This document shows positions 17,041 through 54,527 of a stretch of DNA of 64,000 nt, in pieces. This stretch comes from an uncultured Nitrospiraceae bacterium (lineage in GTDB: Bacteria; Nitrospirota; Nitrospiria; Nitrospirales; Nitrospiraceae). The stretch covers positions 32,001 through 96,000 of the forward strand of contig CAVSTP010000003.1 in NCBI GenBank assembly GCA_963730935.1. The letters run 5' to 3'. How positions within the stretch are numbered: the stretch's first letter is position 1; every line of letters begins with the position of its first letter. The position numbers were made by a program, and so were the translations under genes. The notes beneath the pieces are model-generated. The model did no database searches, was not told the DNA's origin, and was given only the letters and a program-made list of their open reading frames with translations.

Positions 17041-17125
17041 AAGCGGCGGAGACCAGGAAATCAGTCGCGCAGGAGGGAAGATAAACGCGCGAGGGATAGG
17101 ACAGTCGGCGTGGCTCAATACGTCA
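17041..17125 (-). ncRNA. Conserved hairpin leader motif, copy 1
   Basis: gagccacgccgactgtcctatccctcgcgc-loop-gcgcgactgatttcctggtctccgccgctt, starting 7 nt after a TAGCGT -10. Confidence 0.7.
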
Positions 17126-17132
17126 TAGGTTC

Positions 17133-17269
17133 ACGCTAAGCGCTATAGACACAGGAGTCAAGCGCTATAAAGGGTAACTTGGAATAGGAGAATTCAACGA
17201 TTCTATGGGTCGACTATCCTGGGCCTCTATTATATAGCGCTTGACTCCCTGGCCCATTGCGCCCAAGGT
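17133..17269. promoter_or_regulatory. Back-to-back sigma70-like promoters sharing an inverted 16-bp TATAGCGCTTGACTCC element
   Basis: TTGACT-N17-TAGCGT (minus) and TTGACT-N17-CAAGGT (plus); perfect inverted repeat 17154-17169 / 17233-17248. Confidence 0.75.
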
Positions 17270-17274
17270 TGTGC

Positions 17275-17356
17275 TGACGTGTAAGCTCCGTTGACTGTCC
17301 TATCCTCCCGCTTCCTCCTGCTTCCCAGCGAGACCGATTCCCCAGTCTCCGCCGTC
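17275..17356 (+). ncRNA. Conserved hairpin leader motif, copy 2
   Basis: gactgtcctatcctcccgct-loop-agcgagaccgattccccagtctccgccg. Confidence 0.7.
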
Positions 17357-17485
17357 TTTGCACACCGGTGCCCTGACTCGTTTGCCTGTCCGGTGTTCTG
17401 ATCCGCTGATGGAGGCGGTAAGGCTCCGGCCACTGCGTCAGAGGCTGTGCGATTTACGCTCGCATTCCATAGAGAGGAGTGAACC

Positions 17486-17653
17486 ATGCTCTACTATGCA
17501 CTGATCTTTCTGACAGTCGGTCTGATCACCGGCTCCTTGAATTACACCGGAATGGTTTCGTTAGCGGTCGAGATTCCGTTGGTGCTGTCATTGATCGGGA
17601 TCGTGTTGGTTGCGACATATCTGTTCAACGGACGCACCGCGCGGATTGCGTGA
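17486..17653 (+). CDS. DUF1328 (UPF0391) small membrane protein
   Basis: MLYYALIFLTVGLITGSLNYTG, two TM helices, GAGGAG RBS; below the ORF-track length cutoff. Confidence 0.8.
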   Translation: MLYYALIFLTVGLITGSLNYTGMVSLAVEIPLVLSLIGIVLVATYLFNGRTARIA

Positions 17654-17732
17654 TGGGAAGTGTTTCTCAGGTCAATACTTGCACAGCAGTCCATTACACC
17701 ATGAACCACATGGCAACGTGAGGAGGTGCACG

Positions 17733-17969
17733 ATGGTTAGGGAAAAGGTTTCGAACCCAACAACGCCGGGATCGGCCGGCACATCCAGAGGCGGTCAGGA
17801 GGAGGAACAGTCGGGTCCGCCTTTCCAGATATCGAAGGCCGGATGGGATTACGAGCGCATTGCGCGGCGGGCCTACGAACTGTACCTGCAGAGAGGGCAG
17901 CAGGAAGGCGGGGAATTGGAAGATTGGGTGAAGGCAGAGCAGCAACTGGCCGGCGAAGCCGGCAAGTAA
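17733..17969 (+). CDS. DUF2934 domain protein
   Basis: IARRAYELYLQRG..EG..LEDW.KAEQQL; AGGAGG RBS. Confidence 0.88.
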   Translation: MVREKVSNPTTPGSAGTSRGGQEEEQSGPPFQISKAGWDYERIARRAYELYLQRGQQEGGELEDWVKAEQQLAGEAGK

Positions 17970-18024
17970 TCATATGAAGCGGTGATCGAATGGGAACTCC
18001 ATTCGACCCTAAAGGAGACGAGCC

Positions 18025-18504
18025 ATGAACACATTATTACGGTGGGACCCTACTAGAACTCGATGGAACCTTTTCAAAGATCACGATCGAGATGAATTGG
18101 AAAGCCGGTTGGCGGCGCTGCTTGCGACCAGGGAGCCGACGGGAAACGGGGCGAAAGAGGCCCTCACGGTTGCCCAGTGGTCGCCGCTGGTGGACATCAC
18201 GGAGGATGACAAGGAATACCTCATCAAAGCCGAGTTGCCGGACATGAAGAAAGAGGACGTGCGGCTCACAGTGGAAAATGGCGTCCTAGCGATCTCCGGC
18301 GAGCGGAAATTCGAGAAGGAAGAAAACGGCAGGAAATATCACCGCATCGAACGCGCCTACGGGAGCTTCGTGCGCAGCTTTTCCCTTTCGGAGGATGCGG
18401 ATGGGAGCAACGTGACCGCCAATTTCAAGGACGGCGTGCTCCAGGTGCATCTTCCCAAATCAGTCAAGGCGAAGCAGAAAACTGTGGAGATCAAGATTGG
18501 CTAG
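18025..18504 (+). CDS. Hsp20/alpha-crystallin small heat-shock protein
   Basis: W.PLVDI.E, AELP, ISGER, RIERAYGSFVRSF.L, A.FKDGVL...LPK. Confidence 0.96.
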   Translation: MNTLLRWDPTRTRWNLFKDHDRDELESRLAALLATREPTGNGAKEALTVAQWSPLVDITEDDKEYLIKAELPDMKKEDVRLTVENGVLAISGERKFEKEENGRKYHRIERAYGSFVRSFSLSEDADGSNVTANFKDGVLQVHLPKSVKAKQKTVEIKIG

Positions 18505-18640
18505 TATTGCTGATTGGGGGCGTCGGAGAAGGCTTCGTACGCACATGCGACGATGGAGTCTTGCTGACGCTCCGCGCAGGGCCGACTGATGGATATTCAG
18601 AAGAACTGAGGCGTGGTAGTCGCCTCCGGAGGTCTTTTTC

Positions 18641-19171
18641 ATGATCATGCTTCTTACGCATCAAGAAGAACTCAGACGTCAACTTGCACATGCCTTGCAT
18701 GTGAGGGGCCATGAAGTGGCCATTCCGCGGCATCGAGAGGACATGCTCACGGTCCTGAAGGATTCACAGCCCGAACTGGTAATTTTGGACCTGTATTTAT
18801 CGGATCGCAGTGGTGCGGAAAATTTGAGACTCATACATGACCACGAGTATGCCGGGGCCATGCTGGTATTGTCGGGGCCCTCTATGATGCCTATTGTGAA
18901 GGTCGTGTATGCCAGCGGCCTCCGAGTGACCCGCGTGGTCCAGACGCCAGACAATATAAACGGACAATATGATTTAGGGAATCTAGAATCCAACATCCAG
19001 ACGCTGTTAGACGAAGTGGGAAACCGGAAGAGGTGCCATGCGTCAATTGCACAGCGGGCGTATGAGCTTTATGAGACTGAGGGGCGTCAGGAAGGCCGCA
19101 ACTTCCAGAACTGGCTGCGAGCGGAGCAAGAGCTTTCGGGAAGTCTCGGTACGAGAACAAGTGTGCGGTAG
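18641..19171 (+). CDS. Atypical receiver domain fused to DUF2934
   Basis: PELVILDLYL receiver core; C-terminal IAQRAYELYE.EGRQEG...NWLRAEQEL. Confidence 0.8.
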   Translation: MIMLLTHQEELRRQLAHALHVRGHEVAIPRHREDMLTVLKDSQPELVILDLYLSDRSGAENLRLIHDHEYAGAMLVLSGPSMMPIVKVVYASGLRVTRVVQTPDNINGQYDLGNLESNIQTLLDEVGNRKRCHASIAQRAYELYETEGRQEGRNFQNWLRAEQELSGSLGTRTSVR

Positions 19172-19217
19172 ACGATACCGGCACGAACGTGTGATCAAAT
19201 ACAGAGTAAAGGACCCC

Positions 19218-19562
19218 ATGGATCTTGTCCTCTTCACCAGAAACCGGCTGAAGCAGCTCCGTCTGAGTCCGCGAGATCGCGCGCGTGCGTCTAGCATGGC
19301 AGAATCGTATATGGCAGACTTGTGGGAACCGAAGGGTCTTCAAACGGCATCGACGCGAACTCACGTCCATGATCAGCTTGAACGAGTCCTGCAATTGCCG
19401 CATGGACAATTGGCAAAGCTCGCCGACCTGCAGCGTCGGGAACACCTCAAAAAGCGGTTGGAGCACCCCTCTGGTCCATTATTGCATCGACGGCTGGGAT
19501 CTGATGCTCTTCCAACTAAATCAGACGATACATGCGATGTACAAGGATTATCAGGGAAATAG
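19218..19562 (+). pseudogene. Truncated or degenerate XRE-like HTH protein
   Basis: RNRLKQLRL..RD.A.A....ESYMA.L and LAKLADLQRRE.LK, then low-similarity tail. Confidence 0.5.
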
Positions 19563-19658
19563 TGCTGACGGGTCGGCAATTCGAGGACGGAGCGTCTGCA
19601 TGCCACGATGGACACTCCCTCCATTTTCGTATCCTCGTCTGCGTTAATTCTTGCAACT

Positions 19659-19701
19659 TGAGCATTTCTGACCAGCCGCCACTTGCCCATCGGCTTAGCC
19701 T
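19659..19701 (+). promoter_or_regulatory. TGAGC-N6-GACCA box, 21 bp, then TAGCCT -10
   Basis: TGAGCATTTCTGACCA at 19659-19674. Confidence 0.75.
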
Positions 19702-19745
19702 TCTATGTAGCGTACAGGTTGCATAACACACAAAGGAGTCGAACC

Positions 19746-20390
19746 ATGAAGAAGATAGCACTGGGTTTCATCGGAATAGGATTGGCGAGCCTCCCATTCG
19801 CTCCGCCTTCTTATGCGGAAGAGAAGTGAACAATCGCGCCGGCCGCGGGAGAAGCCGGGTCACCGAAGCCCCGGGAAGCGACCAAGGCGGGCGAAACGGA
19901 TATGACCAACACCAAGAGCGAACCAGGTGCTGTCCCCAGTAAGTACACGATCATGCCCGTTGCCAGAGGGAAGAAGGTGGAAGTCGCGAGTGAAATGATC
20001 GGCGACACGGTTAGGAATTCAAAAGGTGAGGATATTGGCAAGTTAGAGCAACTCATCATGGATTCTGAGACCAAGAGGGTTGAGTATGCAATGATTTCAA
20101 TCGGCGATACCGGCCAACTGAAGGCCTATCCCTGGAGCTCCTTCAAAGTTAACAAGGAACAAGGAAACGTTGTTCTCGATGTGACGCCGGAACAGCTTCA
20201 GGCGAAGGCGACGGATCTCTCTCCGGGCATTCAGGAGATCGAGCAGCAGTTACAGGCCTTGCAAAAAAGTGAGGCACGTATAGGAACACGTGACGGACAG
20301 AATATGGGAAATCGCGGTAGTGGTGGCCCCATGGGCGAAACTACAAAGGGTGGGGGTGGCGCGGAAAGAGCGCCAGTCGACAAGAAGTAG
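19746..20390 (+). pseudogene. Exported PRC-barrel protein with in-frame TGA after the signal peptide
   Basis: AAGGAG RBS; MKKIALG...SYAEEK then TGA 19827-19829 in frame with ASEMIG..VRN.KGEDIG.L...IMD, YPW. Confidence 0.75.
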
Positions 20391-20784
20391 ATTCAGCGCT
20401 CAATGGCAGGCGCTCCTTTGAACGAGGGAAGGGGCGCTGTACCTTGTGACGACGTGACGGTAGTCATTAAGCAGATGTATCGCTGCGCTATTACACAGCT
20501 GCAGCCTGGTCGGTCTCGCCCACCAAATGCTTTGGCTCATCATTGACTTAATTAGGACAGCGGTATACAGAGGCCAAAATCCGGGCAGGCGGTTCTGTGC
20601 CGGGTTCTTGCAACCCAACACGAGAATCCCTTGTTACCGCCCCGTCACGGAGCATTGGCACCATCAAAGAGCAGCAAGGCCCCGCCTGCCCCTCGGACGT
20701 ACAGATTACTCGGTCTACCGGCTGGGTTTCGGCAGTGTGACGAGTCCCCGGGGACAACGGCGGTGAAAGAGTGGAGGAGAGATT

Positions 20785-21087
20785 ATGACAACGAAACGTG
20801 CCTTTGTCGGGAAGGGTGCGATGGTGTGGTGGTGCGCCGTCTTGGGGATGTCAGGATGTATTTCCGTGGAACCTGTCCCTAGTTCCGCAACGTATTGGGA
20901 AGCCAAGGAGGTGCCCCATTCGCAGGCGCTCACGGATTACAATGCCTGTAAGATGTGGTCCACCGTGAAGTATGCAGAATCCGAGAAGAGAGAGGAAATC
21001 ATCACGGACAATTTGGGCTACTGGATTCACGTCCCCCTTCTGAAATCGTGCATGGAGCGTAAGGGCTACAAATACGTCGGTCCGTAG
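20785..21087 (+). CDS. Small lipoprotein
   Basis: GGAGGAG RBS, lipobox MSGC, C-terminal CMERKGY. Confidence 0.75.
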   Translation: MTTKRAFVGKGAMVWWCAVLGMSGCISVEPVPSSATYWEAKEVPHSQALTDYNACKMWSTVKYAESEKREEIITDNLGYWIHVPLLKSCMERKGYKYVGP

Positions 21088-21157
21088 GTTGGACGCCGGC
21101 TCCAACTTCAGTAGTCACGGTCGCGAGAAGCCAGCCGGCACACAAATGCCGGTAGAT

Positions 21158-24505: not shown

Positions 24506-25099
24506 TTACACCATCTGCTTCCGAGACTTCTTGGCTCGAGCAGCCGCCGCCGCCGTTTTCACATTCATCTCTTCTTCTGGAGGCGGAAGGACTGCTGCCA
24601 ATCCTAGCGACTCGATCCACAGTTCACGACTCCAGCCCATGCTATGGTACAAGTGTTCGTCTTCTTGGTCCTCGACTTGCTCACACGCGGCTTTCAGAGC
24701 CTTGCCTTCCGGCGCGGGCATTTGCTCGGCCGCCTGAGCCATGAGTTCCCAGTTCTGATGGTCCTTGGTCTCTGCCGTGACCACGCATTCTGCGGCGACG
24801 AGTTGAGCCGCCTTGGGGTTTCCGGCTTTCAGCGCCATGTTCATCGCTTCCACTAGCGCTTCGCCTTGATGCCTGACCACCCGTCGTCCTGGGGTCTCTT
24901 CCGCTGGATCTAAGCCCATCTCGGGCAGCAGATCGCGTAGGAGTTTTTCATGTGTACGGGTTTGATCGAGATACTTCTGCCATTCGTCTTTGAGGTCATC
25001 GTTGACCGCGCATTGGAGGGCGGCCTCATACACCTGGACCCCGCCCACCTCTGTTTCTAACGCTTGGAATAGGAGTTCATGCAATTGTTCTTTCTTCAT
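24506..25099 (-). CDS. Ferritin-like four-helix stress protein
   Basis: ALETE.GG..VY, QT..H, AETKDH.NW, EDEH. Confidence 0.75.
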   Translation of the reverse strand: MKKEQLHELLFQALETEVGGVQVYEAALQCAVNDDLKDEWQKYLDQTRTHEKLLRDLLPEMGLDPAEETPGRRVVRHQGEALVEAMNMALKAGNPKAAQLVAAECVVTAETKDHQNWELMAQAAEQMPAPEGKALKAACEQVEDQEDEHLYHSMGWSRELWIESLGLAAVLPPPEEEMNVKTAAAAARAKKSRKQMV

Positions 25100-25163
25100 G
25101 CGAATTATCCCTTTCTGATTCGGAATGGTTGCTAGGGTGACGACGGCACTCACAGCGGAGGGA

Positions 25164-27353
25164 TCATGCGGGGACCTGGCCTTTGGACTCGCGTTCCCAA
25201 TGTCGATGTTTGCCGATCGCGGTGACGAATTGTGCGGCCACCTGCGCGGTGGAGGCACCGTCGAGAATGATGCCCGGATCCGCATCTAGCGGTGTTCTCT
25301 TAGGCTGGGGTTTCACCATCTCATCCGCTCCGAGCAAGGCAGCGGTCACCAGTGCCGCGGCTTCGCCTGTGGCGGCAATTGTCTTGCAGTGCGTGTAGGC
25401 TTCCGTGATGAAATGGAGCGCTTTGCCGATTTTCATCAGGCTCGCCACACTCTGCTCCCCACCTGGCACATAGACAGCGTCAAATAATACAGACCCTGCG
25501 GTTAAAAAACTGAAGTCAACAGGAAGCTCAGTGCCTTTTGCTCCCGTTAACGTGCCAAGTCGCGGGCCAATGATTTTGGCTTGGCCTCCAGCGGCCGTCA
25601 CGGCCTTCTTGATGGTGGAGAGATCCGCATCGTCGAAGCCGTCGGCCGCAAGAACGGCCACTTTGCGCGTGGCAATGCCGTTCTTGGCCGAGGATGCCAT
25701 GCTCAGAGCCGGTGAGCGTTCCAGCGAGCCATTGCCGCGCACCGGTTGGAATTCATGTATATGGCCATCGGCGGGCACACTCATATTCATCGGCCCTTCC
25801 AGTTTGGCAATCTTCATCCCGAGACCTTGTGCGACCAGACCGGCCAGTGTCTTATCCACCTGAGCCAAGAGTCCGAGCATGCGTGCGCGGATTGCAGATA
25901 CTTCCACCTTGCCCAATTCAAATTGGAGCGCCTGCACGATATGGGCTTTTTCTGGCGGGGATTGGCTATTATAAAACAGTTTGGCCTGGCTGAAATGGTC
26001 AAAGAACTTCTCACTCCGCCCGCGGACCTTGGTCCCTTTCATCTCTTCGGCATAGCTGACAAATCCGCCTGCATTGGCTTGCGCCTGCATCGGGCATCCG
26101 CCGCCCAATGAATTCGGCTGGTAACTGACGCGACCTTGATTGATCGTTTGGCGCATATGACCGTCCCGTTGATTGTTGTGCACGGGAGCGATGGGGCGGT
26201 TGATGGGAATCTCATGAAAATTGGGTCCGCCTAAACGTATGAGTTGTGTGTCCGTGTAGGAGAACAGACGGCCTTGCAGCAGCGGATCGTTGGAAAAATC
26301 AATGCCTGACACGACGTGCCCTGGATGGAAGGCGACCTGCTCCGTTTCAGCAAAAAAATTCTCGGGATTGCGGTTCAAGGTCAATTTGCCGATTCGTCTC
26401 ACCGGGACGAGTTCCTCCGGAATAAGCTTCGTGGCGTCGAGGAGATCAAAATCAAACTTCTGTTCATCCTTTTCTTCGACGATCTGCACCCCGAACTCCC
26501 ATTCTGGAAAATCACCATTCTCGATCGCTTCCCACAGATCGCGCCGGTGGAAGTCAGGATCCAGACCGGAAATTTTCTGTGCTTCATCCCAGACGACCGA
26601 ATGCACGCCCAATACTGGCTTCCAGTGAAATTTCACGAACCGCGATTTCCCCTTCTCATTCACGAATCGAAAGGTATGGACGCCGAAGCCCTCCATCATG
26701 CGATAGCTTCGTGGAATAGCCCGGTCCGACATGACCCACATAATCATGTGCATCGATTCTGGCATCAACGAAATGAAGTCCCAGAATGTATCGTGGGCCG
26801 ACGCGGCCTGCGGGATTTCCCGGTGAGGCTCGGGCTTGATCGCATGGACGAGATCGGGAAACTTGAGGCCATCCTGGATGAAAAAGACCGGAATATTGTT
26901 GCCGACCAGATCAAAATTGCCTTCTTCGGTATAGAATTTCACAGCAAAGCCACGCACGTCTCTCGCCAAATCAGACGATCCGCGTGATCCCACCACCGTC
27001 GAGAAGCGGACGAACACGGGCGTCTTGTGGTCGGGATCTTGAAGAAATTTCGCCTTCGTGAGGGATGCCATCGGTTCGTACACTTGGAAAAATCCGTGCG
27101 CCGCCGCGCCTCGTGCATGCACCACGCGTTCGGGGATGCGCTCGTGATCAAAGTGGGTGATTTTCTCGCGAAGATGGAAGTCTTCTAAGAGGGAAGGTCC
27201 GCGCTCGCCGGCTTTGAGCGTATTTTGATCATCGTTAACGCGGAGTCCGTGATTGGTGGTGAGATACTGCTCATCTGGATTGTCCTGAAACGTGGCCAGG
27301 TCTTTAGCCTTGGCATTCTTGTCTTTCGGCGTTTTCCCCATTCGAGCTCCCAT
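25164..27353 (-). CDS. katE: Large-subunit catalase HPII
   Basis: [25 protein letters not shown]-terminal DJ-1-like domain. Confidence 0.97.
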
Positions 27354-29437: not shown

Positions 29438-29816
29438 CTAGTGAAGAATTCATGGAAGAGGAGGTGGGGACCTACCCCTGCGCGAAGGCAGTCGTGCAGG
29501 GCGACATTAAGAAGCAAGAAGGGAACTGATAATGCGCAACCCACCGTTACATTGAATGAATCCCGGCTTGCGGAACTTATTCCCGCTCGCGTTTCTTGAA
29601 CTGACCGTCGCAATGAGCGGCTCCCGGCTTCCCTTCTTTCCCACAGTGGGCCAGCAGTAGAAGCACCCGTGCCAGCCGTTCTCGACTGAATAGGTTCCGC
29701 AGTGGGGCTGCAGACACTAAAAAATTTATAACGCTTCATAAACATCCGCTTACAGAGTATCGATGCTTTGGCCCTATAGCGGCCACGATGAGTTCGATGT
29801 AGTATGAAATCTCAAG

Positions 29817-29902
29817 CGATACTGAGCCACGCCGACTGTCCCATCTCTCGCGCTAACTCCGTTCCCACACCGCGCGTCTGATTCCCCTGGTCTACGCCGC
29901 TC
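29817..29902 (+). ncRNA. Conserved hairpin leader motif, copy 3
   Basis: gagccacgccgactgtcccatctctcgcgc-loop-gcgcgtctgattcccctggtctacgccgctc. Confidence 0.7.
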
Positions 29903-30157
29903 GTTCGAGAAAACGCACCTCTGCCATCACTAGTGTCTTTCCTCGGATCTGTAGTCCTGTTGGGGGAGACCTTTGCACGGCGATGATGTTCGACATCACA
30001 AAGCCGCAATTGTTCCTGCAGCTCTTTTTGGGAAGGCGCGTGACGATGCGAGATGGACGGTGAAGGTGGTGCCAATCAAGTGATCGGTGCATTTACGGCG
30101 ACATTTTGCCCGTGAGCCGTCTGAGAAATGCTTACCCACGAGAAAGGATAGTCCCAC

Positions 30158-31285
30158 ATGAAAATCGCACAGATCGCCCCTCTTTGGGAAAGCGTCCCAC
30201 CCAAGCTATACGGAGGCACGGAACGAGTCGTCTCTTATATGACGGAAGAACTCGTTCGCCAGGGTCATGACGTCACTCTGTTTGCTAGCGGGGATTCTCA
30301 AACGATGGCCCGTCTCTGGGCAGCCTGTCCCCATTCGTTCCGGTTGGTCGGAGGGCTCATCAATCGTGATGCGCCGCTGATACTCATGCAGGAACATGCC
30401 TTAGGAGTCGAAGCCGAGAGGTTCGATATCATTCATTCCCATCTGGACTTTCTGAGCTTCCCGCTCAGTCGCCGCTGTGCGACACCGGTGCTAACGACCT
30501 TGCACGGACGATTAGATCTTCCCGAATTACAGCCCATTTACCGAGAGTATGCCGACATGCCAGTTGTGTCCATTTCGAATGCGCAGCGCATGCCGTTGCC
30601 CAATGCGAACTGGCAGGGCACGGTGTATCACGGGCTGCCGGACCTCTATGCCTTTCATCCCAATTCCGGATCAGGATCCTACCTGGCCTACCTTGGGCGC
30701 ATCTGTCCGGAAAAGCGTCCCGATCATGCGATTGAAATTGCCAAACGGGTGGGCATGCCGCTCCGAATTGCCGCCAAAGTGGATCCGGTCGATCAGGAGT
30801 ATTTTGAAACGCAGATCGCACCGGCGTTGGACCACCCGCTGGTGGAGTACCTTGGAGAGATCACCGATGCAGAAAAAGGTGATTTTCTCGGAAATGCGGC
30901 CGCGGTGCTCTGCCCCTACGACTGGCCGGAACCGTTTGGGATCGTGTTGATCGAGGCGTTAGCCTGCGGGACGCCGGTGTTGGCGTATCGTCGCGGATCA
31001 ATCCCCGAGATCATCGAAGACGGCGTCACGGGATTTATCTGTGAGAACCTGGATGAGATGGTGGCGGCGGTCGACCGTTTGCCGCTCATTCAACGCCAGC
31101 AATGCCGGGACGCGTTCGAGGCCCGCTTCACAGTGAAGCGGATGGTCCAAAACTATCTCGCCCTGTACGAACGGATGGCCGCGTCTGTCAAACCCCTGGC
31201 CTACGTCAATGGTCAATCATCCCTGCTGAGTCACAGGCGAATGCCATCGACCGAACTCGTCATTCCTCAGGTCGGCACCGCCTGA
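30158..31285 (+). CDS. GT4 glycosyltransferase
   Basis: PP..YGGTER, LGRI.PEK, EPFG...IEALACGTPV. Confidence 0.95.
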   Translation: MKIAQIAPLWESVPPKLYGGTERVVSYMTEELVRQGHDVTLFASGDSQTMARLWAACPHSFRLVGGLINRDAPLILMQEHALGVEAERFDIIHSHLDFLSFPLSRRCATPVLTTLHGRLDLPELQPIYREYADMPVVSISNAQRMPLPNANWQGTVYHGLPDLYAFHPNSGSGSYLAYLGRICPEKRPDHAIEIAKRVGMPLRIAAKVDPVDQEYFETQIAPALDHPLVEYLGEITDAEKGDFLGNAAAVLCPYDWPEPFGIVLIEALACGTPVLAYRRGSIPEIIEDGVTGFICENLDEMVAAVDRLPLIQRQQCRDAFEARFTVKRMVQNYLALYERMAASVKPLAYVNGQSSLLSHRRMPSTELVIPQVGTA

Positions 31286-31473: not shown

Positions 31474-31770
31474 TCTAAGCAGAGCGCCGCTCCACCTGCT
31501 GCGCTCTACACCCTAGAATTATTGCCGACCGAGAGAGGCTCTGAGGCTCTATTGTGACCATTTGTGTGACCAGAATAGGTGGAAACGCCGTTGGCGGCGC
31601 GGCAGTCATTGTTGATGAACGGACGTGCAAGAAGAATTACTTCGTGGTTGTAGCACCCTCAACCACAAATCAATCAGAAAATAAATGCTTGTGTTAATCC
31701 ATAGCTTTGTGGGCGGTTGGTGTTCTGGTCGCATTGACTCACCGCTCTTCAGACTTATTAGGTACAGGCA

Positions 31771-31856
31771 TGGTGTTGAGCCCCGCTGACCGTTCCATTC
31801 TCTCCCGAGTCACTTACTCTTCGTAGCGCGTCTGATTCATCAGTCTCAGCCGCGTC
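31771..31856 (+). ncRNA. Conserved hairpin leader motif, copy 4 (diverged)
   Basis: ttgagccccgctgacc...gcgcgtctgattcatcagtctc; upstream tcgcattgactcacc shared with copy 7. Confidence 0.6.
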
Positions 31857-31952
31857 TCCGCGGTCTGCGGATCATGGACTGGAGCACCGCTTGAGCGGTC
31901 CGTCTTAAAGGCACCGGGGAAAGATCCATCCACCTTAACCAAGGAGCACGTG

Positions 31953-32216
31953 ATGAATCAGGAACAATTCGGGCAGTTTTGGGAACAACTCAGGACTCCG
32001 CTGAACGCGAAGTGGGAGAAGGTCACGAGGGAGGATCTCGACGAGATCCAGGGCGATCTGGCCAAGTTCGGCTCGGTGCTGCAGAGGCGATACGGCGAAT
32101 TGCACAAAGAGGAAGTGAGCATCTGGGCCAACCGCCGGTATTCCCATTGGACCGGAAATTATGCCGGTTACGAAGATGCAGAGCCATTTCTCACCCGGCA
32201 CAAGGAGGTCGTATGA
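31953..32216 (+). CDS. CsbD-like stress protein
   Basis: MN.EQ....W.QL......KW...T..DL..I.G......LQ.RYG. Confidence 0.8.
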   Translation: MNQEQFGQFWEQLRTPLNAKWEKVTREDLDEIQGDLAKFGSVLQRRYGELHKEEVSIWANRRYSHWTGNYAGYEDAEPFLTRHKEVV

Positions 32217-33120: not shown

Positions 33121-33367
33121 GTGATGAATCAAGAACAATTCGGGCAGTTTTGGGAGCAACTCAGGACTCCACTGAAAGACACTTGGGCGAAGATAACGAT
33201 GGAGGATCTCGACGAGATTCAGGGCGATCTTGCCAAGTTTGGCTCGGTGCTACAGAGGCGATACGGCGAGTTGCACAAAGAGGAAGGTGACCATCTGGGC
33301 CGACCGCCGGTATTCCCATTGGACGGGAAATTATGCCGGTTACAAAGATCCTGAGCCTGTGTCCTAA
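33121..33367 (+). pseudogene. Second CsbD-like gene with +1 frameshift
   Basis: Paralog of 31953; extra G in gaggaaggtgacc shifts the IWADRRYSHWTGNYAGY tail out of frame. Confidence 0.8.
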
Positions 33368-33397
33368 CCCTGCGATGCGGACCTGTAGGGTGAATTT

Positions 33398-33480
33398 GGT
33401 ACTGAGCTACGCCGACTGTCCTATCCCTCGCGCCGTTCTCGACTTCTAAGCGCGATCCGATTCTCCAGTCTCCGCCGCTC
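33398..33480 (+). ncRNA. Conserved hairpin leader motif, copy 5
   Basis: gagctacgccgactgtcctatccctcgcgc-loop-gcgcgatccgattctccagtctccgccgctc, about 7 nt after TAGGGT. Confidence 0.72.
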
Positions 33481-33582
33481 CTCCTGTAATCTGTCTTGTC
33501 ACCTTGATCGCGTCCAGTGTTGTCTGTTTCATGGCGGAAGTACACTCGCGTCATCGAGTCGTCGCCGAGAGGAAGGAACCTG

Positions 33583-33879
33583 ATGAAAACTTACCTGGGG
33601 ATGAACCGGATCGTTTTGATTTCAATGGCCGCCTTCGCGTGGTCCGGGGTCGTATTGCCTCTTCGTGCGGAGGACAGACTCGTGGAGGGAGCCATGATTG
33701 TGGCCCCGAAGGAAGAGATTGCCCGAATCGCCAATGCCTCAGATGACACACTGACAGCCTGCTTAACGAGGATTCCCGTTCAGATGACCACTCAGCAGCG
33801 TATGACGGCGCAGCAGATCTGCCAAATAGAAGAGACCACGAGGCAGATAGTGCCACTCGTAGAAAAGGAAGGGAACTGA
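33583..33879 (+). CDS. Exported hypothetical protein with AC..RIP...Q.M.A.Q.C motif
   Basis: Signal peptide; motif shared with 47988-48356. Confidence 0.7.
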   Translation: MKTYLGMNRIVLISMAAFAWSGVVLPLRAEDRLVEGAMIVAPKEEIARIANASDDTLTACLTRIPVQMTTQQRMTAQQICQIEETTRQIVPLVEKEGN

Positions 33880-35000: not shown

Positions 35001-35222
35001 ATGCCGATGCGTTGTCCGCGCTGCAAAGGGTTCATGGTTGCCACCCAGTTGAATGAACTATGGACCTCCGGCCAGGAAGACGGGTGGCGCTGCCTTCTGT
35101 GCGGTGAGAATATTGATCCTGTCATTGAAGGCAATCGGACGGGGCACGCCCCTCCGGTTCAGAGCCGTGCCCGTGTCCCCGGAGCTCCCACCGTCAAGTC
35201 CACAAAAGGAAGATCCAGGTGA
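35001..35222 (+). CDS. Small CxxC...CxxC zinc-ribbon protein
   Basis: CPRCKGFMV...GWRCLLCGENIDPVI..NR. Confidence 0.75.
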   Translation: MPMRCPRCKGFMVATQLNELWTSGQEDGWRCLLCGENIDPVIEGNRTGHAPPVQSRARVPGAPTVKSTKGRSR

Positions 35223-36449: not shown

Positions 36450-36524
36450 TGACGCTTCGGCTACGCTGACTGCCTGCGCTTCCCGTTTCTCTCTTAGCGC
36501 GATCGATTTTCAGTCCCCACGCGC
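36450..36524 (+). ncRNA. Conserved hairpin leader motif, copy 6 (internal deletion)
   Basis: gctacgctgactgcctgcgct-loop-agcgcgatcgattttcagtc. Confidence 0.6.
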
Positions 36525-36651
36525 AACGCCAGACCGTCTGCCAGATTGGATAGTCCCCCGCAGATAAGCCGCTTGCGTGGTTGAGAATGAGTCATTGTTT
36601 GTTGAGAAGATGGTGTGTGCAACAGGTGTGTGCAACAAAGGGGGTTCTATT

Positions 36652-36990
36652 ATGAGACTTTTCACGATGACGATAGCAGCTCTCGCGTTTCTCGGAATGA
36701 CGGGGCTGGCCTTGGCAAACCCGTCGATGCTGCCAAAGCATCCAGGGTATCCGTCTGGTGGCGAGTTTGCGAACGATAAGGGCCAGAAGAATCTGACCTA
36801 TAGCCAATCCATATTGGAGGCCGCGACGTCCGGCGACACGAATATGATTCCGACGTTGATGGATCAGAACAATGTGGATCAGAACAATGCCAGGCTCATG
36901 GAACATGGCGGAGCCGGTCAATCGCCTGTGGTCGGATCGAACCTGAAGACTGAGCCTTCGGTGAAAGAAGGCGAGCGGATAAAGCAGTAA
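36652..36990 (+). CDS. Exported hypothetical protein
   Basis: Signal ALA-NP, LPKHPGYP motif. Confidence 0.75.
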   Translation: MRLFTMTIAALAFLGMTGLALANPSMLPKHPGYPSGGEFANDKGQKNLTYSQSILEAATSGDTNMIPTLMDQNNVDQNNARLMEHGGAGQSPVVGSNLKTEPSVKEGERIKQ

Positions 36991-38320: not shown

Positions 38321-38503
38321 ATGACACCTGAGGAGCACATTGCGAAAATGACGATAGCCATCCGACAAGCGATCAAGGTAATGGGCGATCGGTTCGGATC
38401 GACAGAACAGGACGTCACGAAGGCCATTCACGAACTGAAGATGTCGATGCAGGGTGCAACGGAACCGAGGGCACCCCTTGGGGGCTCTATGACGACCACA
38501 TGA
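38321..38503 (+). CDS. Small hypothetical protein
   Basis: AAGGAG RBS. Confidence 0.45.
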   Translation: MTPEEHIAKMTIAIRQAIKVMGDRFGSTEQDVTKAIHELKMSMQGATEPRAPLGGSMTTT

Positions 38504-40601: not shown

Positions 40602-41040
40602 CTCCCGCGGGGACTACACAGCTTCTAACCGAGGCTTATGTCAAAACATGATAAGAGAAAATCCTTGCTGGGGGTGCGCCCCGGCTAGAATCCAACCCGC
40701 GACATTTAGCTTAGAAGACAGTTACCTGCCACCAAGCACATACCAGATAAGCAACATGTACGCACTCATGACCAATGTCATAAGGGCGAACAGGATACCC
40801 GCGAGTCCTAGAAGGTCCCAATCTATCTTCGAGACAACCATGTGTGATTATGGCGAGAAGTCCTGCAGCGGTCTGTGCTGAAGTGATCAGGTAGCAATCA
40901 CTAGATGAGGGTTGCCGTTGTCCAATAGTGGAAGACTCATGAAAATAAATATACCCGTGCTAATTCGTAGTCTTATGGGGTTGTCCGCGTGCTCGTCGCA
41001 TTGACTCACCACGCTTCAGGGTTATTGGGGTGTACAGTCA

Positions 41041-41126
41041 AGTGTTGAATCACGCGGTCTGCCTCATTCCCTCTCGCGCCCTCACTATTCCTTGCGCGTC
41101 TGATTCACGCCCGCTTCTACGGCGGT
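41041..41126 (+). ncRNA. Conserved hairpin leader motif, copy 7 (diverged)
   Basis: ctctcgcgc-loop-gcgcgtctgattc; upstream region similar to copy 4. Confidence 0.6.
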
Positions 41127-41161
41127 TTTGCGTGAGCTGTGTCGAGCCTGGGAGTCAACTC

Positions 41162-41362
41162 ATGAACTGCCCTCGTTGTCATGGTCTGATGGTGACCATC
41201 CGATTGGAAGATGCGGGAAGCTCTTCACTCTCCTTCTCAGGGTGGCGATGTCTGCTGTGTGGTGAGGTGATTGATTCGGGGATCAAAGCGAATCGGGAAG
41301 TGTTCCACGGACCAATGGGCAGCCGGGGCCATGCTCGATACGGCGTTTCGCTTGTGCCGTAG
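41162..41362 (+). CDS. Small zinc-ribbon protein
   Basis: MNCPRCHGLMV...GWRCLLCGEVID..I.ANR; GGGAG RBS. Confidence 0.78.
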   Translation: MNCPRCHGLMVTIRLEDAGSSSLSFSGWRCLLCGEVIDSGIKANREVFHGPMGSRGHARYGVSLVP

Positions 41363-43285: not shown

Positions 43286-43900
43286 GTGAAAGAAACCACA
43301 TCGACATCGGCGCATCCTGGAACCACAGCGTCTCGGACGTCCCGAAAGGAAGGAATCGTGAAGGAAGCACTCGGTCTGACGGACGTGAAGACGCTCCGGG
43401 ATCGGGCTCGTGAAGGGATTGAGGACGGCGCCATGACATCGGGTTACAAGGCCAACGCAAAGACGGTGATCAAGCTCTTGAATGATGCCCTCGCGACGGA
43501 AATCGTCTGTGTCCTTCGCTATAAGCGCCATTACTTCATGGCCACTGGGATCAGCTCCCTCAGCGTGAAGGGCGAGTTTCTCGAACATGCCACTGAGGAG
43601 CAAGCCCATGCCGATCAATTGGCCGAACGCATTGTCCAACTCGGGGGAGAGCCGAATCTGTCCCCTGAAGGGATGCTGAACCGAAGCCACTCGGAATATG
43701 TCGAAGGGGAAACTTTGGTGGAAATGATCACGGAAGACCTGATCGCCGAACGGATCGCGATTGAGAGCTATCGCGAAATGGTCGCTTATGTCGGCACGGA
43801 TGATTCGACGACCCGCCAGCTCTTAGAGGGGATTCTTGCGCAAGAAGAAGAACATGCAGAGGATCTGGCCGGCCTCCTGGATGACGGTATGGTGGTCTAG
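43286..43900 (+). CDS. Bacterioferritin/Dps-like ferritin-domain protein
   Basis: LNDALATE, EE..HAD.LA.RI.QLGG.P, EDL.AER.AI..Y, EEEHA.DL. Confidence 0.9.
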   Translation: MKETTSTSAHPGTTASRTSRKEGIVKEALGLTDVKTLRDRAREGIEDGAMTSGYKANAKTVIKLLNDALATEIVCVLRYKRHYFMATGISSLSVKGEFLEHATEEQAHADQLAERIVQLGGEPNLSPEGMLNRSHSEYVEGETLVEMITEDLIAERIAIESYREMVAYVGTDDSTTRQLLEGILAQEEEHAEDLAGLLDDGMVV

Positions 43901-50434: not shown

Positions 50435-52363
50435 ATGAATCTTATTCAACCAGTGCGACCATCTCTATCAACAGAGAGTTCGGTACGACGCCTACTCCTG
50501 GTGGATCCCTATCCTCGAAACAATCCCTACCACCTCACGGCATCGGAACGCCGAGCCGTATGGTTTCCAAAACTGAGTTTGCCGGTCATCGCTGCTTATA
50601 CACCTGAGTCCTGGTCCGTCGATCTCGTGGACGAAGCTGTCCAGGATGTCAATTTCGATCATCCCTGTGACCTCGTGGGCATCTCCGTTATGACCTGTTA
50701 CGCCCCCCGCGCCTACGAGATTGCCACGGAGTTCAGGAAGCGAGGGAAGAAAGTTGTGTTGGGTGGTGTTCATCCCACCTATTGTCCGGAAGAAGCTTTG
50801 CAGTTCTGTGACGCGGTAGTGTGCGGTGAGGCTGAAGACCTGTGGCCCGAGGTGATAGCCGACTTCATGGCTGGGGCACTGCAGCGCACATACAAGATGA
50901 CAGCGTTTCCCGCGCTGGACCATTACAAAAGTCCGCGGGTGGAACTGTTGAGTCCCGATGCCTATATGACCCGCCAGTGCAGTTTCACGACGCGCGGCTG
51001 TCATTTTGATTGCGAGTTCTGCAGCGTTTCCCCGTTTAACGGCAAAACCACCCGGCGCCGGCCGGTCGAGGAGGTCATCAAGGAACTGACTCAGGTGAAG
51101 CGGTGGGTCTGCGGGGAACTGGTGGACCGCATGTCGAATGACACCCTCTGGAATGCTTTCCTGACTGGATTGCGCATCCGATTGGGTATCGAAGACGGCA
51201 GTATCGTGGCCTTCGTGGATGACCTCCACAACAGCAACCGGGCCTACTGCCGCGAACTGTGGGCCGCTCTGAAACCCTTGAACATCAAATGGGGCTGCCA
51301 ATCCACGTTGTTCTTGGGTGACGACGAGGACATGGTCAAGCTGGCAGCCGAGAGCGGTTGTGTGTCGGTGTTCGTCGGAATGGAATCACTCGATGAAGGT
51401 GCCTTAGCAGAGACGAATAAGCCGTTTAATCGAGTGGAGAAGTTCTCACAAGAGATCAAGATGTTTCATGATCACGGCATCATGGTGAATCCGGGGATTG
51501 TTTTCGGGTTCGATCACGACGACGAATCGGTGTTCGAGCGAGCCGTGGAGTTTCTCACCAAGAACCAGGTGGAATTGGCCTATTTCAACGTCCTCACGCC
51601 CTTGCCGGGGACGGCACTCTTCGATCGCTACAATGCGGCGGGCCGCATCTTCGACCGCGACTGGGCCAAATATGACGGGAAGCATGTCGTCTATCGTCCT
51701 AGTCGCATGACACCGGAGCAGCTACAGGAAGGATTCTTTTGGGCCAACCATCAGTTCTATTCACTTTCCTCCATCTGGAGACGCCTCTCCGGTACCAGCC
51801 AGCGGTTCGTTCCCCGATTGATCATGAATCGAGAGTTTCGCAGGTTGGTGAAACGATCATGTCCCCCGGGGTCCTTATCGCTAGTCGCGACGGCACTCAG
51901 GACATTGCAAGCAAAACTGCCGACATTACAAGTCGCGCACCTGATTCCGAATGCCTTGCATGTGACGAAAGAGAATCGGGAGGGTGAAATCTCGCATGCC
52001 GAGAATCGCTGGTTGAGCATCAAGGCAAAACGGCATGATCAATGCGCGGCCCTGTTCGTAGATCTCGAGGGGACCTTGGATCAGGCCAGCACGCAAGAAT
52101 TGGTCGAGCGGATCACAGAGGCGGCAAAGCGTGCAAGACTCGACATCATCATCAATTTCGAGCATCTGAAGGACGCTACACCAGAGGCTCTACGGGCATT
52201 GGCCGATAGTGAGTTATGGCGAGCCGTCGTGCCATACGCGAAGATACACTACCGGAAGTTCAAGGCGGCGTTCGAGGCGTCGCTCGATGGACTCTCGATT
52301 CCCCGGCTTAGTCTCTTGGGCGAAGATTTCTCCGAGGCAGGAGTTTCACTGCCGGCGAGGTGA
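50435..52363 (+). CDS. B12-binding radical SAM protein with STAS-like C-terminal extension
   Basis: LGGVHPT, GEAE, TRGCHFDCEFC, GMES, LTPLPGT; tail VDLEGTLD...IIINFEHL. Confidence 0.9.
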   Translation: MNLIQPVRPSLSTESSVRRLLLVDPYPRNNPYHLTASERRAVWFPKLSLPVIAAYTPESWSVDLVDEAVQDVNFDHPCDLVGISVMTCYAPRAYEIATEFRKRGKKVVLGGVHPTYCPEEALQFCDAVVCGEAEDLWPEVIADFMAGALQRTYKMTAFPALDHYKSPRVELLSPDAYMTRQCSFTTRGCHFDCEFCSVSPFNGKTTRRRPVEEVIKELTQVKRWVCGELVDRMSNDTLWNAFLTGLRIRLGIEDGSIVAFVDDLHNSNRAYCRELWAALKPLNIKWGCQSTLFLGDDEDMVKLAAESGCVSVFVGMESLDEGALAETNKPFNRVEKFSQEIKMFHDHGIMVNPGIVFGFDHDDESVFERAVEFLTKNQVELAYFNVLTPLPGTALFDRYNAAGRIFDRDWAKYDGKHVVYRPSRMTPEQLQEGFFWANHQFYSLSSIWRRLSGTSQRFVPRLIMNREFRRLVKRSCPPGSLSLVATALRTLQAKLPTLQVAHLIPNALHVTKENREGEISHAENRWLSIKAKRHDQCAALFVDLEGTLDQASTQELVERITEAAKRARLDIIINFEHLKDATPEALRALADSELWRAVVPYAKIHYRKFKAAFEASLDGLSIPRLSLLGEDFSEAGVSLPAR

Positions 52364-52420
52364 CCTCAACTCCGCTGCGAAAACACTCCTTTCACAAAGA
52401 CCGTTCGCACGTTCCGCACT

Positions 52421-53275
52421 ATGTGGTTCTCTTTGACCATATTTGTTGTTCGCCTTCAGACTTGGACAGTCGTCGCGGTCATCATCGCGATGATCGGTCT
52501 CATGGGCTCGCCGGCAGGCACCGCGCCAATTGCGGTGCGGTTTCCGCAGGGCATTGCCCACGGCTTTCTGCTCGTGCGGTCGAGCGCCGGGGAAATCATT
52601 GGCCACGGTGAGATGACTCAGGTCGTCAAAGAGGGAGATCTGCTCGACAGCCGTTTGGTCTTCAATTTCAAGGACGGCTCTCTGCACGATGAGAAAGTGA
52701 CCTTCTCTCAACAGGGTGTGTTTTCGATGCTCCGTTATCACCTGGTGCAGCGAGGCCCGTCGTTTCCGGACCAGATCGAGGTCTCGATCGACCGCAGGAC
52801 GGCGGAATACAAGGTCCGTTCGAGAACGGGGGAGGAAGGGAAGGAAGAGGTGCTGGCCGGAGCCTTGACGCTTCCCAAGGATGTGTACAACGGCATCTTT
52901 GTCACGATGTTGCTGAACCTGCCGAAAGGGGCGAGCGAAATAGTGAACTTTCTCGCCTTCACGCCCGCGCCGGAGATCTTCAAGCTGGAGCTGCAGCTGA
53001 CAGATGAGCAGCACACCGTCCAGATCGGCGAGCTGTCACGGAAGGCGCTGCACTACGTCTTTAAGCCGGACATCGGCATGATTCGGGAGTTGCTCGGTAA
53101 GGCCACCGGCAAGATCCCGTCCCATTTTCACTATGACTGTTGGATCCTGGCCGATGAGGTGCCGAGCTTCGTGCGATTTGAAGGGCCCTTACAACTCATG
53201 GGGCCGGTCGTGCGGATCGAACTGTTGAGCCCCCGTCTGTTGACGAAGCCCGAAGACAAGACGGCCTCGAAATAG
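52421..53275 (+). CDS. Exported hypothetical protein
   Basis: Signal-like N-terminus, beta-rich body. Confidence 0.75.
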   Translation: MWFSLTIFVVRLQTWTVVAVIIAMIGLMGSPAGTAPIAVRFPQGIAHGFLLVRSSAGEIIGHGEMTQVVKEGDLLDSRLVFNFKDGSLHDEKVTFSQQGVFSMLRYHLVQRGPSFPDQIEVSIDRRTAEYKVRSRTGEEGKEEVLAGALTLPKDVYNGIFVTMLLNLPKGASEIVNFLAFTPAPEIFKLELQLTDEQHTVQIGELSRKALHYVFKPDIGMIRELLGKATGKIPSHFHYDCWILADEVPSFVRFEGPLQLMGPVVRIELLSPRLLTKPEDKTASK

Positions 53276-53387
53276 CGTTGGGTCAGCAATTTCGCCTGGA
53301 TATATCACCCTCCGCTACGAGCATTCTCCGGATGAGACATCGGTGGTTGTGAGGGGGAATGCCTTTCCTGTTCTTATTTCCTCAAAA

Positions 53388-53403
53388 TGAGCAATTTTGA
53401 CCA
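53388..53403 (+). promoter_or_regulatory. TGAGCAATTTTGACCA box
   Basis: Exact consensus; downstream -10 is weak (gtacat). Confidence 0.7.
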
Positions 53404-53474
53404 GACCAGGATCTGTCTTGTCTGGTACATGTCACTTCAAACTCCGCACGATTTGGTCTTCCATGCCCATCCGT

Positions 53475-54071
53475 ATGACACACGTCCACCATGCCTCCGT
53501 CTTAGGGCTTCTGTTTCTCGCATCCATAGCGCTGCAAGGTTGCTTAGCCATGGTGTGGCTGGGGGCAGTCGGGGTTGATATGACCCGGACCAGCGAGATT
53601 GAATTCCATCCCTTCGAGAATACGTGGATGGTTGAACTGCAAGAGCGGCAGCAGGTGGGACTGATGAAGAGCATCGCCGTGATGCCGTTCGTCGGTGATC
53701 CGGCAATGGCCGAGCGATGGACCGTTGTGCTTCGAGAAATGACCGATCTTCGTATCGTGAGCCCGTCCGATGCCGCCCAGGTGGACTGCGTCCTGAACGG
53801 GAAAGTCGCCGGTCAAGAACCGACGACAACTTTTGTGGGACTGAAGGAGAGTTCCTCCAGGAGACTATATCTGCATCTGGCGACCGACTCAGGGACCCTT
53901 ATGTGGAAGACAGAGCTGCCCTACACGATTGAAAAGGGGGCTAAGAATCTGGATGAGGAAGCTGTGACGAAGGCGCTCCTGACTCATGTGCGCGCGCATG
54001 CCGATGCTATTGGATTAGCTGAACTGGGAGTGGGAAGCCAACAGATTGTGCCACGGTCCCTGCGTAATTGA
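53475..54071 (+). CDS. Hypothetical lipoprotein
   Basis: LQGC lipobox, SIAVMPF. Confidence 0.7.
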   Translation: MTHVHHASVLGLLFLASIALQGCLAMVWLGAVGVDMTRTSEIEFHPFENTWMVELQERQQVGLMKSIAVMPFVGDPAMAERWTVVLREMTDLRIVSPSDAAQVDCVLNGKVAGQEPTTTFVGLKESSSRRLYLHLATDSGTLMWKTELPYTIEKGAKNLDEEAVTKALLTHVRAHADAIGLAELGVGSQQIVPRSLRN

Positions 54072-54192
54072 TTCGACTGTCACACGGCAGCCTTCACCGA
54101 TGGCCGAGACGTTCTCGATGGCGGGGCAATCCGGAAGAACCTCGAATCTGACGAGGCGCTCTATCGCAGGTCGGCGAAGGGGAGACAGTACC

Positions 54193-54390
54193 GTGAAACT
54201 GGAATCCACTCTTGCTGATCGAATCCTGGAAGCTGTGTCTCAGACGCCTGGCTGTCGGATTGAGGACGTGGTCGGCCAATTTCCGGACTTAACGTGGAAT
54301 CAAATTATCCGCGAACTCGGTCGTCTGAGCAGGAACGGTCAATTGCGTCTCATGTTGAATCGTCGAGGGCTTACTGTCCGGGAGCGCTGA
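54193..54390 (+). CDS. Stand-alone winged-helix-like small protein
   Basis: PDLTWNQI..ELGRLSRNGQL; paralog of the 48458 N-terminal domain. Confidence 0.7.
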   Translation: MKLESTLADRILEAVSQTPGCRIEDVVGQFPDLTWNQIIRELGRLSRNGQLRLMLNRRGLTVRER

Positions 54391-54472
54391 TGAGATCGTG
54401 GTGGTGCCATCCTCTCGCTGGCTTGGAAGTTACACCCTGGACGTTTCCTCCCCGATCTTCAAAGAGAGACAC

Positions 54473-54527
54473 GATGTTTCAGCCGCGCTGACTGCCTTTC
54501 TTCGCGCCTCCTGCTGCCTTCCCGCGC
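54473..54527 (+). ncRNA. Partial leader motif, copy 8 (5' arm and inner stem only)
   Basis: gatgtttcagccgcgctgactgcc...tcgcgc-ctcctgctgccttccc-gcgc. Confidence 0.45.

Follow-up and report, generated by a model that had tools for sequence, protein, structure and literature searches.

A predicted structured leader RNA, joined to its own promoter, recurs ahead of putative stress genes in Nitrospira-type nitrifiers

The DNA analyzed here is a 64,000-nt window (positions 32,001 to 96,000 of contig CAVSTP010000003.1, assembly GCA_963730935.1) from an uncultured Nitrospiraceae bacterium, in which an irregular hairpin element recurs ahead of putative stress genes. A covariance-model scan of the window returned five strong copies, two decayed copies, and one half copy, recovering in place all eight elements that an earlier note on this DNA had listed; the downstream genes it had named were also confirmed. 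Their size, given there as ~85 nt, was revised to ~94 nt, with a weak additional outer stem. We conclude that the element is very probably a cis-acting leader RNA, dispersed as a portable promoter-plus-leader module with a predicted start site and a predicted fold. The position of the promoter, the orientation toward genes, and the pattern of substitution can be read directly from the copies.

The final covariance model (R2) was built from 106 sequences, only one of them taken from the window, and its E-values are rough both within the window and genome-wide. After the eight copies (Table 1), the next-best match in the window had an E-value of 0.16. In the 4.05-Mb genome, R2 matched 15 places, 12 of which (E ≤ 1.1e-8) are significant copies. 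Genome-wide, the three weak window copies gave E-values of 0.004 (copy 7), 0.015 (copy 6), and 0.32 (copy 8); the last, a match to the 5′ half, has no significance by itself at that scale. We read copies 6 and 7 as decayed homologues of the intact element because their gene groups carry intact copies in relatives. A sequence-only hidden Markov model (HMM) of five window copies retrieved six further strong genome copies (E ≤ 1.5e-9), while the best match of the same model in the reversed genome had an E-value of 6.1.

For comparative analysis, 223 unique copies were collected with the sequence-only HMM (137 fit the seed pattern and 86 do not), of which 221 were kept after two misaligned half-matches had been removed. 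The element forms one long stem with internal loops, its paired segments lying at 34-39/56-61, 29-31/64-66, 20-24/71-75, 16-17/78-79, and 10-13/82-85 in copy 1 numbering, with the weak outermost stem near 1-6/88-93. The internal loops between stems are symmetric (2x2, 4x4, and 2x2) and 97% pyrimidine. Averaged over columns, conservation falls from 0.93 for core stems to 0.77 for internal loops and 0.56 for the apical loop, which ranges from 12 to 26 nt in 1-nt steps. Apical loops contain 457 UCC words against 252 ± 12 expected from composition, and CCUCC is found in 51 of 221 loops against 34 ± 5 in shuffles. Among 1989 loop cells, 1852 hold pyrimidine–pyrimidine oppositions and 73 have turned into canonical pairs; loop closure is so scarce that it looks as if extra stability were selected against. 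Under the model fold, 191 of 221 copies carry four to seven C-C or A-C oppositions, and GGA occurs 0.09 times per copy on the structured strand.

The nested stems that the earlier note had drawn (GAGC/GCUY, GACUG/CAGUC, AUC/GAU, and UCGCGC/GCGCGA) are borne out in general, but not in every copy: AUC/GAU is missing from copy 6, GACUG/CAGUC has been lost in copy 7, and copy 8 has no 3′ arm. Its observations of G-U-only pairing in copies 1 and 3, of CCUCCU in the loops of copies 1 and 2, and of a −10-like hexamer 5–7 nt before copies 1, 2, and 5 were all reproduced. The covariation it saw at the loop-closing pair (C-G in copies 1, 3, 5, and 7; U-A in copies 2 and 6) came from comparing different columns, as copies 2 and 6 retain the closing C-G and add a U-A inside it at an unconserved position. 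Among the other copies, 7 of 221 show a genuine exchange of C-G for U-A at the loop-closing position.

A promoter precedes most copies at a fixed distance. A TTGAC −35 box lies at −44 to −30 relative to the element in 167 of 218 copies, compared with 6 in an equal control window further upstream. In 163 copies a −10 hexamer, most commonly TAGGGT or CAGGGT, follows 16–18 nt past TTGAC, and 147 of the 163 copies with both boxes have it ending 5–7 nt before the hairpin. This spacing is unchanged in distant families, so the hairpin begins at the predicted +1, and the predicted transcription start is its first base. Several copies with other promoter sequences have, as judged by eye, a −10-like hexamer at similar spacing. 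On its own, the promoter pattern is frequent: it has 136 matches in the genome, and the element follows 8 of them. Sigma factors encoded in the genome comprise RpoD, a second RpoD-like protein, an RpoS-like protein (below cut-off), and an RpoH-like protein. One promoter subclass (window 17140-17169, minus strand; 17233-17262, plus strand) carries an ATWGCGC-like word just before the −10 hexamer and often a similar word before the −35 box, ~22 bp away; all five genome matches of the word before −10 precede the hairpin, and it is a possible transcription-factor site.

Substitutions within the hairpin point to a folded RNA on the sense strand. Among core Watson–Crick pairs, tree-counted events number 41 to G-U against 12 to A-C, a count that leaves out two pairs biased by the search pattern. 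Loci picked without the RNA model gave 26 against 6, and the top stem alone 17 against 7; the spacers beside the hairpin show no G-U strand bias like that of the core. RNAalifold recovered the two main stems from a structure-blind MAFFT alignment. A pair counter scored 87% of cells as paired, a value reached in 0 of 500 shuffles under a lenient control that ignores kinship, and 5 of the top 13 covariation pairs among 4095 are pairs of the model (p = 7e-9). Double changes recur in distant families, for example from G-C to A-U in the top stem. The strands are told apart by the substitution pattern only, as folding energy alone fails to separate the two strands (median z −2.1 versus −1.7 in 60 copies). 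A slipped pairing register, suggested by a 19/72 correlation, was rejected as ~12 kcal/mol weaker and broken in 39 C-A copies.

Other results count against a structured leader of this kind. In an R-scape-like, tree-aware covariation test, none of 4095 pairs was significant (best E 13), owing to the scant variation of the core; absence of significant covariation was one of the outcomes that the earlier note had set against its own proposal, and under the tree-aware null the data go part of the way there. The outermost stem is just 65% paired. G-U bias is absent from the outer stems (36 versus 24, p = 0.13), which makes them less certain than the core. When whole leaders were folded, the core pairing survived in 46% of 146 leaders, compared with 40% when the spacer was shuffled, and no conserved alternative fold was found in them. 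A generic promoter scanner also missed the hairpin promoters (7 sites against 9.6 expected).

The copies face genes. An open reading frame (ORF) with a strong ribosome-binding site lies within 260 nt in the forward direction for 117 of 173 copies and in the backward direction for 16, and the random orientation that the earlier note had named as evidence against a leader was not seen, the copies sharing one orientation. A simple ORF rule assigned a first gene to 194 of 221 copies, giving 38 similarity groups, some singletons among which are probably spurious. The large groups encode CsbD-like proteins (41), DUF1328-like proteins (31), a 97-aa probably exported protein (26), and ErpA/IscA (19), followed by a small helical protein (14), a zinc ribbon (11), and a second probably exported protein (8), for which one examined copy shows a fusion to an OmpA domain; the family labels CsbD and DUF1328 come from matches below cut-off. 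Smaller groups include an oxoacid oxidoreductase subunit, a desaturase, BON/OsmY, a PstS-like protein, and GT4. By their roles in other bacteria, these would be general-stress genes; a literature search found no expression data on them.

The layout of the leaders is equally consistent. From hairpin end to start codon the median distance is 122 nt (194 leaders); the start codon lies within 20 nt in 0 of 194 leaders and within 40 nt in 4. Between gene groups, identity is 70% in the hairpin, 55% in the spacer (52% when shuffled), and 55% in the upstream 60 nt. Because hairpin identity persists between groups while the spacer is near random, selection appears to act on the hairpin rather than on a whole duplicated block. 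Paralogues of erpA and of the oxidoreductase subunit elsewhere in the genome have no upstream hairpin copy. A terminator-like site is present in 9 of 194 spacers and in none of the other 185.

Several further observations concern these leaders. The back-to-back promoter–hairpin pair at window 17032-17366 has a duplicate at C4:1454448-1454865 of the same genome; in each pair, the left unit precedes Fe-S assembly and oxoacid-oxidoreductase genes and the right unit small stress-type genes. A GGAGGCG-like word ~44 nt past the hairpin (e.g., window 17410-17418) occurs in 54 of 194 leaders against 17 when shuffled. It is retained in leaders of the DUF1328, ErpA, and helical-protein genes, is frequent in some gene groups only, and could base-pair with the outer stem's 3′ strand. 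Just before copy 5 lies a second CsbD-like gene (window 33124-33364, plus strand) that matches in two frames and looks frameshifted.

Table 1. Hairpin copies, promoter parts, and associated features in the window. Scores and E-values are from R2; the E-values are within-window and rough.
Feature	Position	Strand	Bits	E-value	Remarks
Copy 1, intact	17032..17125	-	95.7	1e-26	Leader of 52-codon ORF, 2-oxoacid oxidoreductase beta subunit, iscU
Possible leaderless mini-ORF of copy 1	17115..17126	-			AUG at predicted +1, in-frame stop after 3 codons
-10-like TAGCGT of copy 1	17133..17138	-			Predicted +1 would be A at 17126
-35 box TTGACT of copy 1	17156..17161	-			Conserved position
Copy 2 promoter	17241..17269	+			Divergent from copy 1; -35 TTGACT 17241-17246, 17 nt, -10-like CAAGGT 17264-17269
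Copy 2, intact	17275..17366	+	74.3	4e-20	119 nt before DUF1328-like ORF, then DUF2934 protein, Hsp20
Candidate -10-like TAGTAT before copy 3	29800..29805	+			No TTGAC box
Copy 3, intact	29815..29911	+	67.1	6e-18	246 nt before GT4 glycosyltransferase (30158-31285)
-35 box of copy 4	31734..31739	+			-10 degenerate
Copy 4, partly eroded	31769..31864	+	42.5	2e-10	Before ORF 31953-32216, tentatively CsbD-like, in part from a homologue's weak NCBIfam match
-10 TAGGGT of copy 5	33386..33391	+			No TTGAC box
Copy 5, intact	33395..33489	+	80.7	4e-22	93 nt before 98-aa probably exported protein (33583-33879), then PsiE-family gene
Copy 6, decayed	36450..36532	+		3e-4	Before 112-aa probably exported protein (36652-36990), homologues of which carry intact copies
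60-aa two-helix protein	38321..38503	+			Downstream of copy 6; no known family; co-occurs with hairpin; candidate partner only
-35 box of copy 7	41001..41006	+			-10 degenerate
Copy 7, decayed	41038..41128	+		7e-5	33 nt before zinc-ribbon-like ORF (41162-41362)
Copy 8, 5′ half only	54472..54527	+		6e-3	183 nt before 2930-aa GH94/glucoamylase (ndvB-like) gene

Range figures come from samples of genomes, in which strict filters lose weak matches. In the sample drawn from the class, R2 had matches in 49 of 61 host-family genomes, in 5 of 5 from one distant family, and in 4 of 32 from a second; the remaining 42 genomes gave no match. By BLAST, the element was present in 4 of 5 genomes of a fourth family of the class, and in a phylum-wide draw the first model matched no family outside the class. 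An exact pattern scan found at least 122 stretches (at least 121 loci). Among the matches listed, 114 are titled Nitrospira or a higher Nitrospirota rank, and five real copies bear the titles "uncultured bacterium" (3), Deltaproteobacteria (1), and Nitrosospira (1). The latter two (L018 and L136) are intact copies with the promoter or typical neighbours, and may reflect naming or binning error, or transfer. Two further matches among those listed, in Betaproteobacteria and Planctomycetota records, were set aside as chance, and viral contigs gave no pattern match. Together, the range, the orientation, the promoter spacing, and the G-U bias support a lineage-restricted structured 5′ leader read toward the downstream gene, as the earlier note had proposed.

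Given this layout, we asked how such a leader might act. Distant start codons, no preference of the loops for their own ribosome-binding sites, no shared alternative fold, and few terminator-like sites remove the usual thermometer and the two usual riboswitch outputs, which leaves action from the 5′ end at a distance, through elongation, decay, or a bound protein. Tentatively, we favour a foldable loading site for the termination factor Rho. A sigma-70-family promoter (TTGAC, 17–18 nt, YAGGGT-like) would start the transcript at the hairpin's first base, and the transcript would fold through short Watson–Crick stems and symmetric all-pyrimidine internal loops up to a 12–26-nt UCC-rich cap, with an untranslated spacer of ~100–150 nt before the first gene. 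The folded or factor-held hairpin would hide ~90 nt of C-rich, G-poor RNA, letting polymerase read into the genes; once opened, it would admit Rho, which would then terminate transcription within the long untranslated spacer. In this manner a single RNA switch could gate many unrelated genes and leave their ribosome-binding sites untouched.

We favour this mechanism because the element is C-rich and G-poor, its loops rarely close, a rho gene is present in the genome, and the cfa leader offers a precedent. The C/G ratio is 1.8, with six UCC per copy, compared with 1.1 and two behind 128 other promoter-pattern matches, and a ratio of at least 1.6 occurs in 5% of genome windows. Descriptions of Rho sites give C-rich, G-poor stretches of RNA about 80 nt long, and a CU-rich Rho site in the E. 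coli cfa leader is concealed by a stem-loop (10.1101/2024.02.02.578684). Features of Rho-controlled leaders recur here: the leaders are long, untranslated, and mostly free of terminator-like sites, they include a tract of about that length and composition, and the genome has a rho gene. Other observations pull the other way. The spacer is not C-rich. The core stems, 93% conserved in sequence, exceed what masking needs, and such conservation fits protein recognition better than masking. Finally, RNA-library contigs from four runs span the copy 2 hairpin through the next ORF (17286-17664 and 17318-17836) and also run from inside copy 1 into the oxidoreductase gene, showing read-through or DNA, without termination. 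These runs consist of contigs only (word shares ≤ 0.25) in which DNA may be present; start, strand, and level cannot be read from them, and they were not used as support.

Falling cytoplasmic pH is a hazard for nitrite oxidisers. A highly unlikely extension of the Rho mechanism would make the hairpin itself a proton sensor for the whole regulon: a pH drop would zip the pyrimidine loops into a continuous rod and hide the Rho site, C-C mismatches in RNA duplexes having reported apparent protonation pKa values of 6.7–7.0 (PMC12714568). If true, the sensor would switch on general-stress and Fe-S repair genes without a protein or metabolite.

A hairpin at the mRNA start, far from the ribosome-binding site, is also the arrangement of 5′-terminal stabiliser stem-loops such as that of the ompA leader. 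It is possible, if rather doubtful, that the element shields the 5′ end from 5′-end-dependent decay and is bound by a specific RNA-binding protein that sets half-life or translation; we favour Rho loading over this, and the two are compatible. The hairpin sits at the predicted +1 whatever the promoter type, its stems and internal loops are highly conserved, and the genome encodes an RNase E/G-family protein, four RRM proteins, and two cold-shock domains. Within the family, 34 of 49 motif-bearing and 0 of 12 motif-free genomes encode a 60-aa two-helix protein; in a distant family 5 of 5 do, and in the five genomes examined there its gene follows shortly after the hairpin. Stabilisers of the ompA type, however, need structure only and no conserved sequence, whereas the unpaired pyrimidines of the element are conserved across families. 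The two-helix protein was not detected with this query in 15 motif-bearing genomes, lacks a known family or fold match, and may merely travel with the island among genomes that are non-independent kin; no match to Hfq, CsrA, or RNase J was found in the genome. It is unlikely that the UCC-rich loops act in the manner of cuckoo RNAs, pairing with purine-rich ribosome-binding sites either on the same transcript or from a freed small RNA of ~100 nt. UCC and CCUCC are enriched in the loops as described above, but there is no preference for cognate sites (−8.98 kcal/mol for a copy's own ribosome-binding site against −9.01 for others), which gives no support to the anti-Shine–Dalgarno role suggested in the earlier note; shuffled loops pair equally well, no consistent Shine–Dalgarno-pairing segment runs across gene groups, terminator-like sites are rare, and placement is always that of a leader.

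A DNA-level element, in which a duplicated promoter block carries inverted repeats that bind a transcription factor past +1 and the hairpin is incidental, is a decidedly unlikely account. True double changes are few (four events in the unbiased core), no covarying pair is significant, promoter and element travel together, and one promoter subclass is found only with the element (5/5). Against this stand the strand specificity of the G-U bias, non-matching positions that are pyrimidine on both arms, and an arm distance that varies in 1-nt steps, which would be hard for a DNA-binding dimer. We also consider it very improbable that a ribosome at a +1 AUG (Met-Thr-X-stop) opens the outer stems and ties the leader to the state of translation. 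AUG occupies the +1 position in 68 of 216 copies, with an in-frame stop at codon 4 in 46 of the 68 compared with 55 of 148 others, which gives a complete AUG-plus-stop mini-ORF in 46 of 216 copies. Most copies, 30 of the 31 in the DUF1328 group among them, lack the AUG, the third codon is not constant (Tyr, Cys, Phe, Ser), and the AUG–stop link may only reflect an ancestral block among non-independent kin. An RNA thermometer, which the earlier note had offered as an option, or a mobile or REP-like (repetitive extragenic palindromic) repeat is largely refuted. Hsp20 and a GroES-like gene lie downstream of some copies, and genomes carry several copies each, but no start codon comes within 20 nt, no melting is predicted between 20 and 55 °C, and flanking duplications do not exceed the control. 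Known thermometers (ROSE, fourU) were discarded since the ribosome-binding site lies outside the hairpin, and a miniature inverted-repeat transposable element or REP repeat for want of a target-site duplication and for fixed orientation and stable gene context, the same gene groups recurring across distant families and viral contigs giving no match.

Switching of cfa/rpoS-type leaders by small RNAs is Hfq-dependent, and the host genome of the element, in contrast, has no Hfq match; Rho dependence of the element is a prediction. As described for E. coli cfa and rpoS (10.1101/2024.02.02.578684), Rho-attenuated leaders share with the element a long untranslated leader with no intrinsic terminator, a CU-rich tract within a stem-loop, and stress-type genes. 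They are single-gene leaders switched by small RNAs, whereas the element is one fold at +1 before ~38 gene groups. Cuckoo RNAs of Alphaproteobacteria are likewise multi-copy with C-rich loops bearing anti-Shine–Dalgarno-like words, but are described as sets of 2–4 short neighbouring hairpins whose stems vary and whose CCUCCUCCC loop is fixed (PMC4615179). The element, a single long hairpin with conserved stems, a variable loop, CCUCC in just 51 of 221 copies, and no Rfam match, was therefore not assigned to them. Csr/Rsm-type sponge RNAs carry repeated GGA in loops and have CsrA as partner; with 0.09 GGA per copy and no CsrA match in the genome, this identity was rejected too.

Among orphan cis-regulatory motifs, the element has what one survey (PMC11109978) describes for a "high-ranking candidate", namely many representatives, a good consensus, and constant placement in the 5′ untranslated region, but differs in having no single metabolic theme and no visible expression platform. 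Of the features of a riboswitch, the conserved fold is seen and a conserved terminator or ribosome-binding-site-pairing fold is not; a Rho platform would escape such a comparison. The judgement of the earlier note that the element is foreign to Rfam holds: Rfam 15 gave no match over any copy in the window, the best hit in 16950-17500 having E 1.8 and 15 bits. In the open-access literature, we found no paper on such a motif and no described regulatory RNA motif for Nitrospira-family bacteria; the main texts of PMC11109978 and PMC8632094 do not mention Nitrospira, and an unnamed entry in their supplements is possible.

Several proteins were considered as candidate partners. The 60-aa two-helix protein has an invariant DRFGSTE motif and is mostly single-copy; a profile search found 79 unnamed relatives, and atlas, PDB, Pfam, and fold searches assigned no family to the small proteins by the hairpins. 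The zinc-ribbon protein was dropped as a partner, its presence in 138 of 141 genomes being uninformative; this Nitrospiria zinc-ribbon-like family (window 41162-41362 and 35007-35222) reaches 22 matches per genome and has no Pfam family. The four RRM-protein genes have no hairpin copy upstream. These genes (L178-L181, at C4:1343374(-), C4:1617056(-), C4:1003944(-), and C3:135358(+)) share a conserved ~120-nt leader of their own, in which a pyrimidine-rich tract precedes the ribosome-binding site; this leader matches neither Rfam nor the hairpin and is a possible second uncatalogued motif, perhaps autoregulatory. The window further encodes a PMT-type glycosyltransferase (57-1826), a TupA-like ATP-grasp protein (8767-9738), a long catalase with a haem-oxygenase-like neighbour (24506-27353), and a ferritin/Dps-like protein (43286-43900); the 2930-aa GH94 protein lies at 54711-63503.

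Nitrospira-family bacteria rank among the major nitrifiers of soil, water, and wastewater plants. The element is a real, well-conserved, and apparently uncatalogued family of probable leader RNAs in these organisms, most like a Rho-attenuated or protein-bound leader and a candidate member of either kind. Leader RNA motifs are a known kind and many exist; this one is of unusual build and spans a whole regulon, and a pyrimidine-looped hairpin at +1, far from the ribosome-binding site, is not how riboswitches or thermometers are usually laid out. The element's 94-nt length and its more than 200 natural variants make it directly testable in vitro and in E. coli reporters. In this context, the element marks a putative regulon that can be read from genomes, comprising CsbD-like, DUF1328-like, BON/OsmY, Hsp20, ErpA/IscA, and IscU proteins, oxoacid-oxidoreductase paralogues, and several small proteins of unassigned family.

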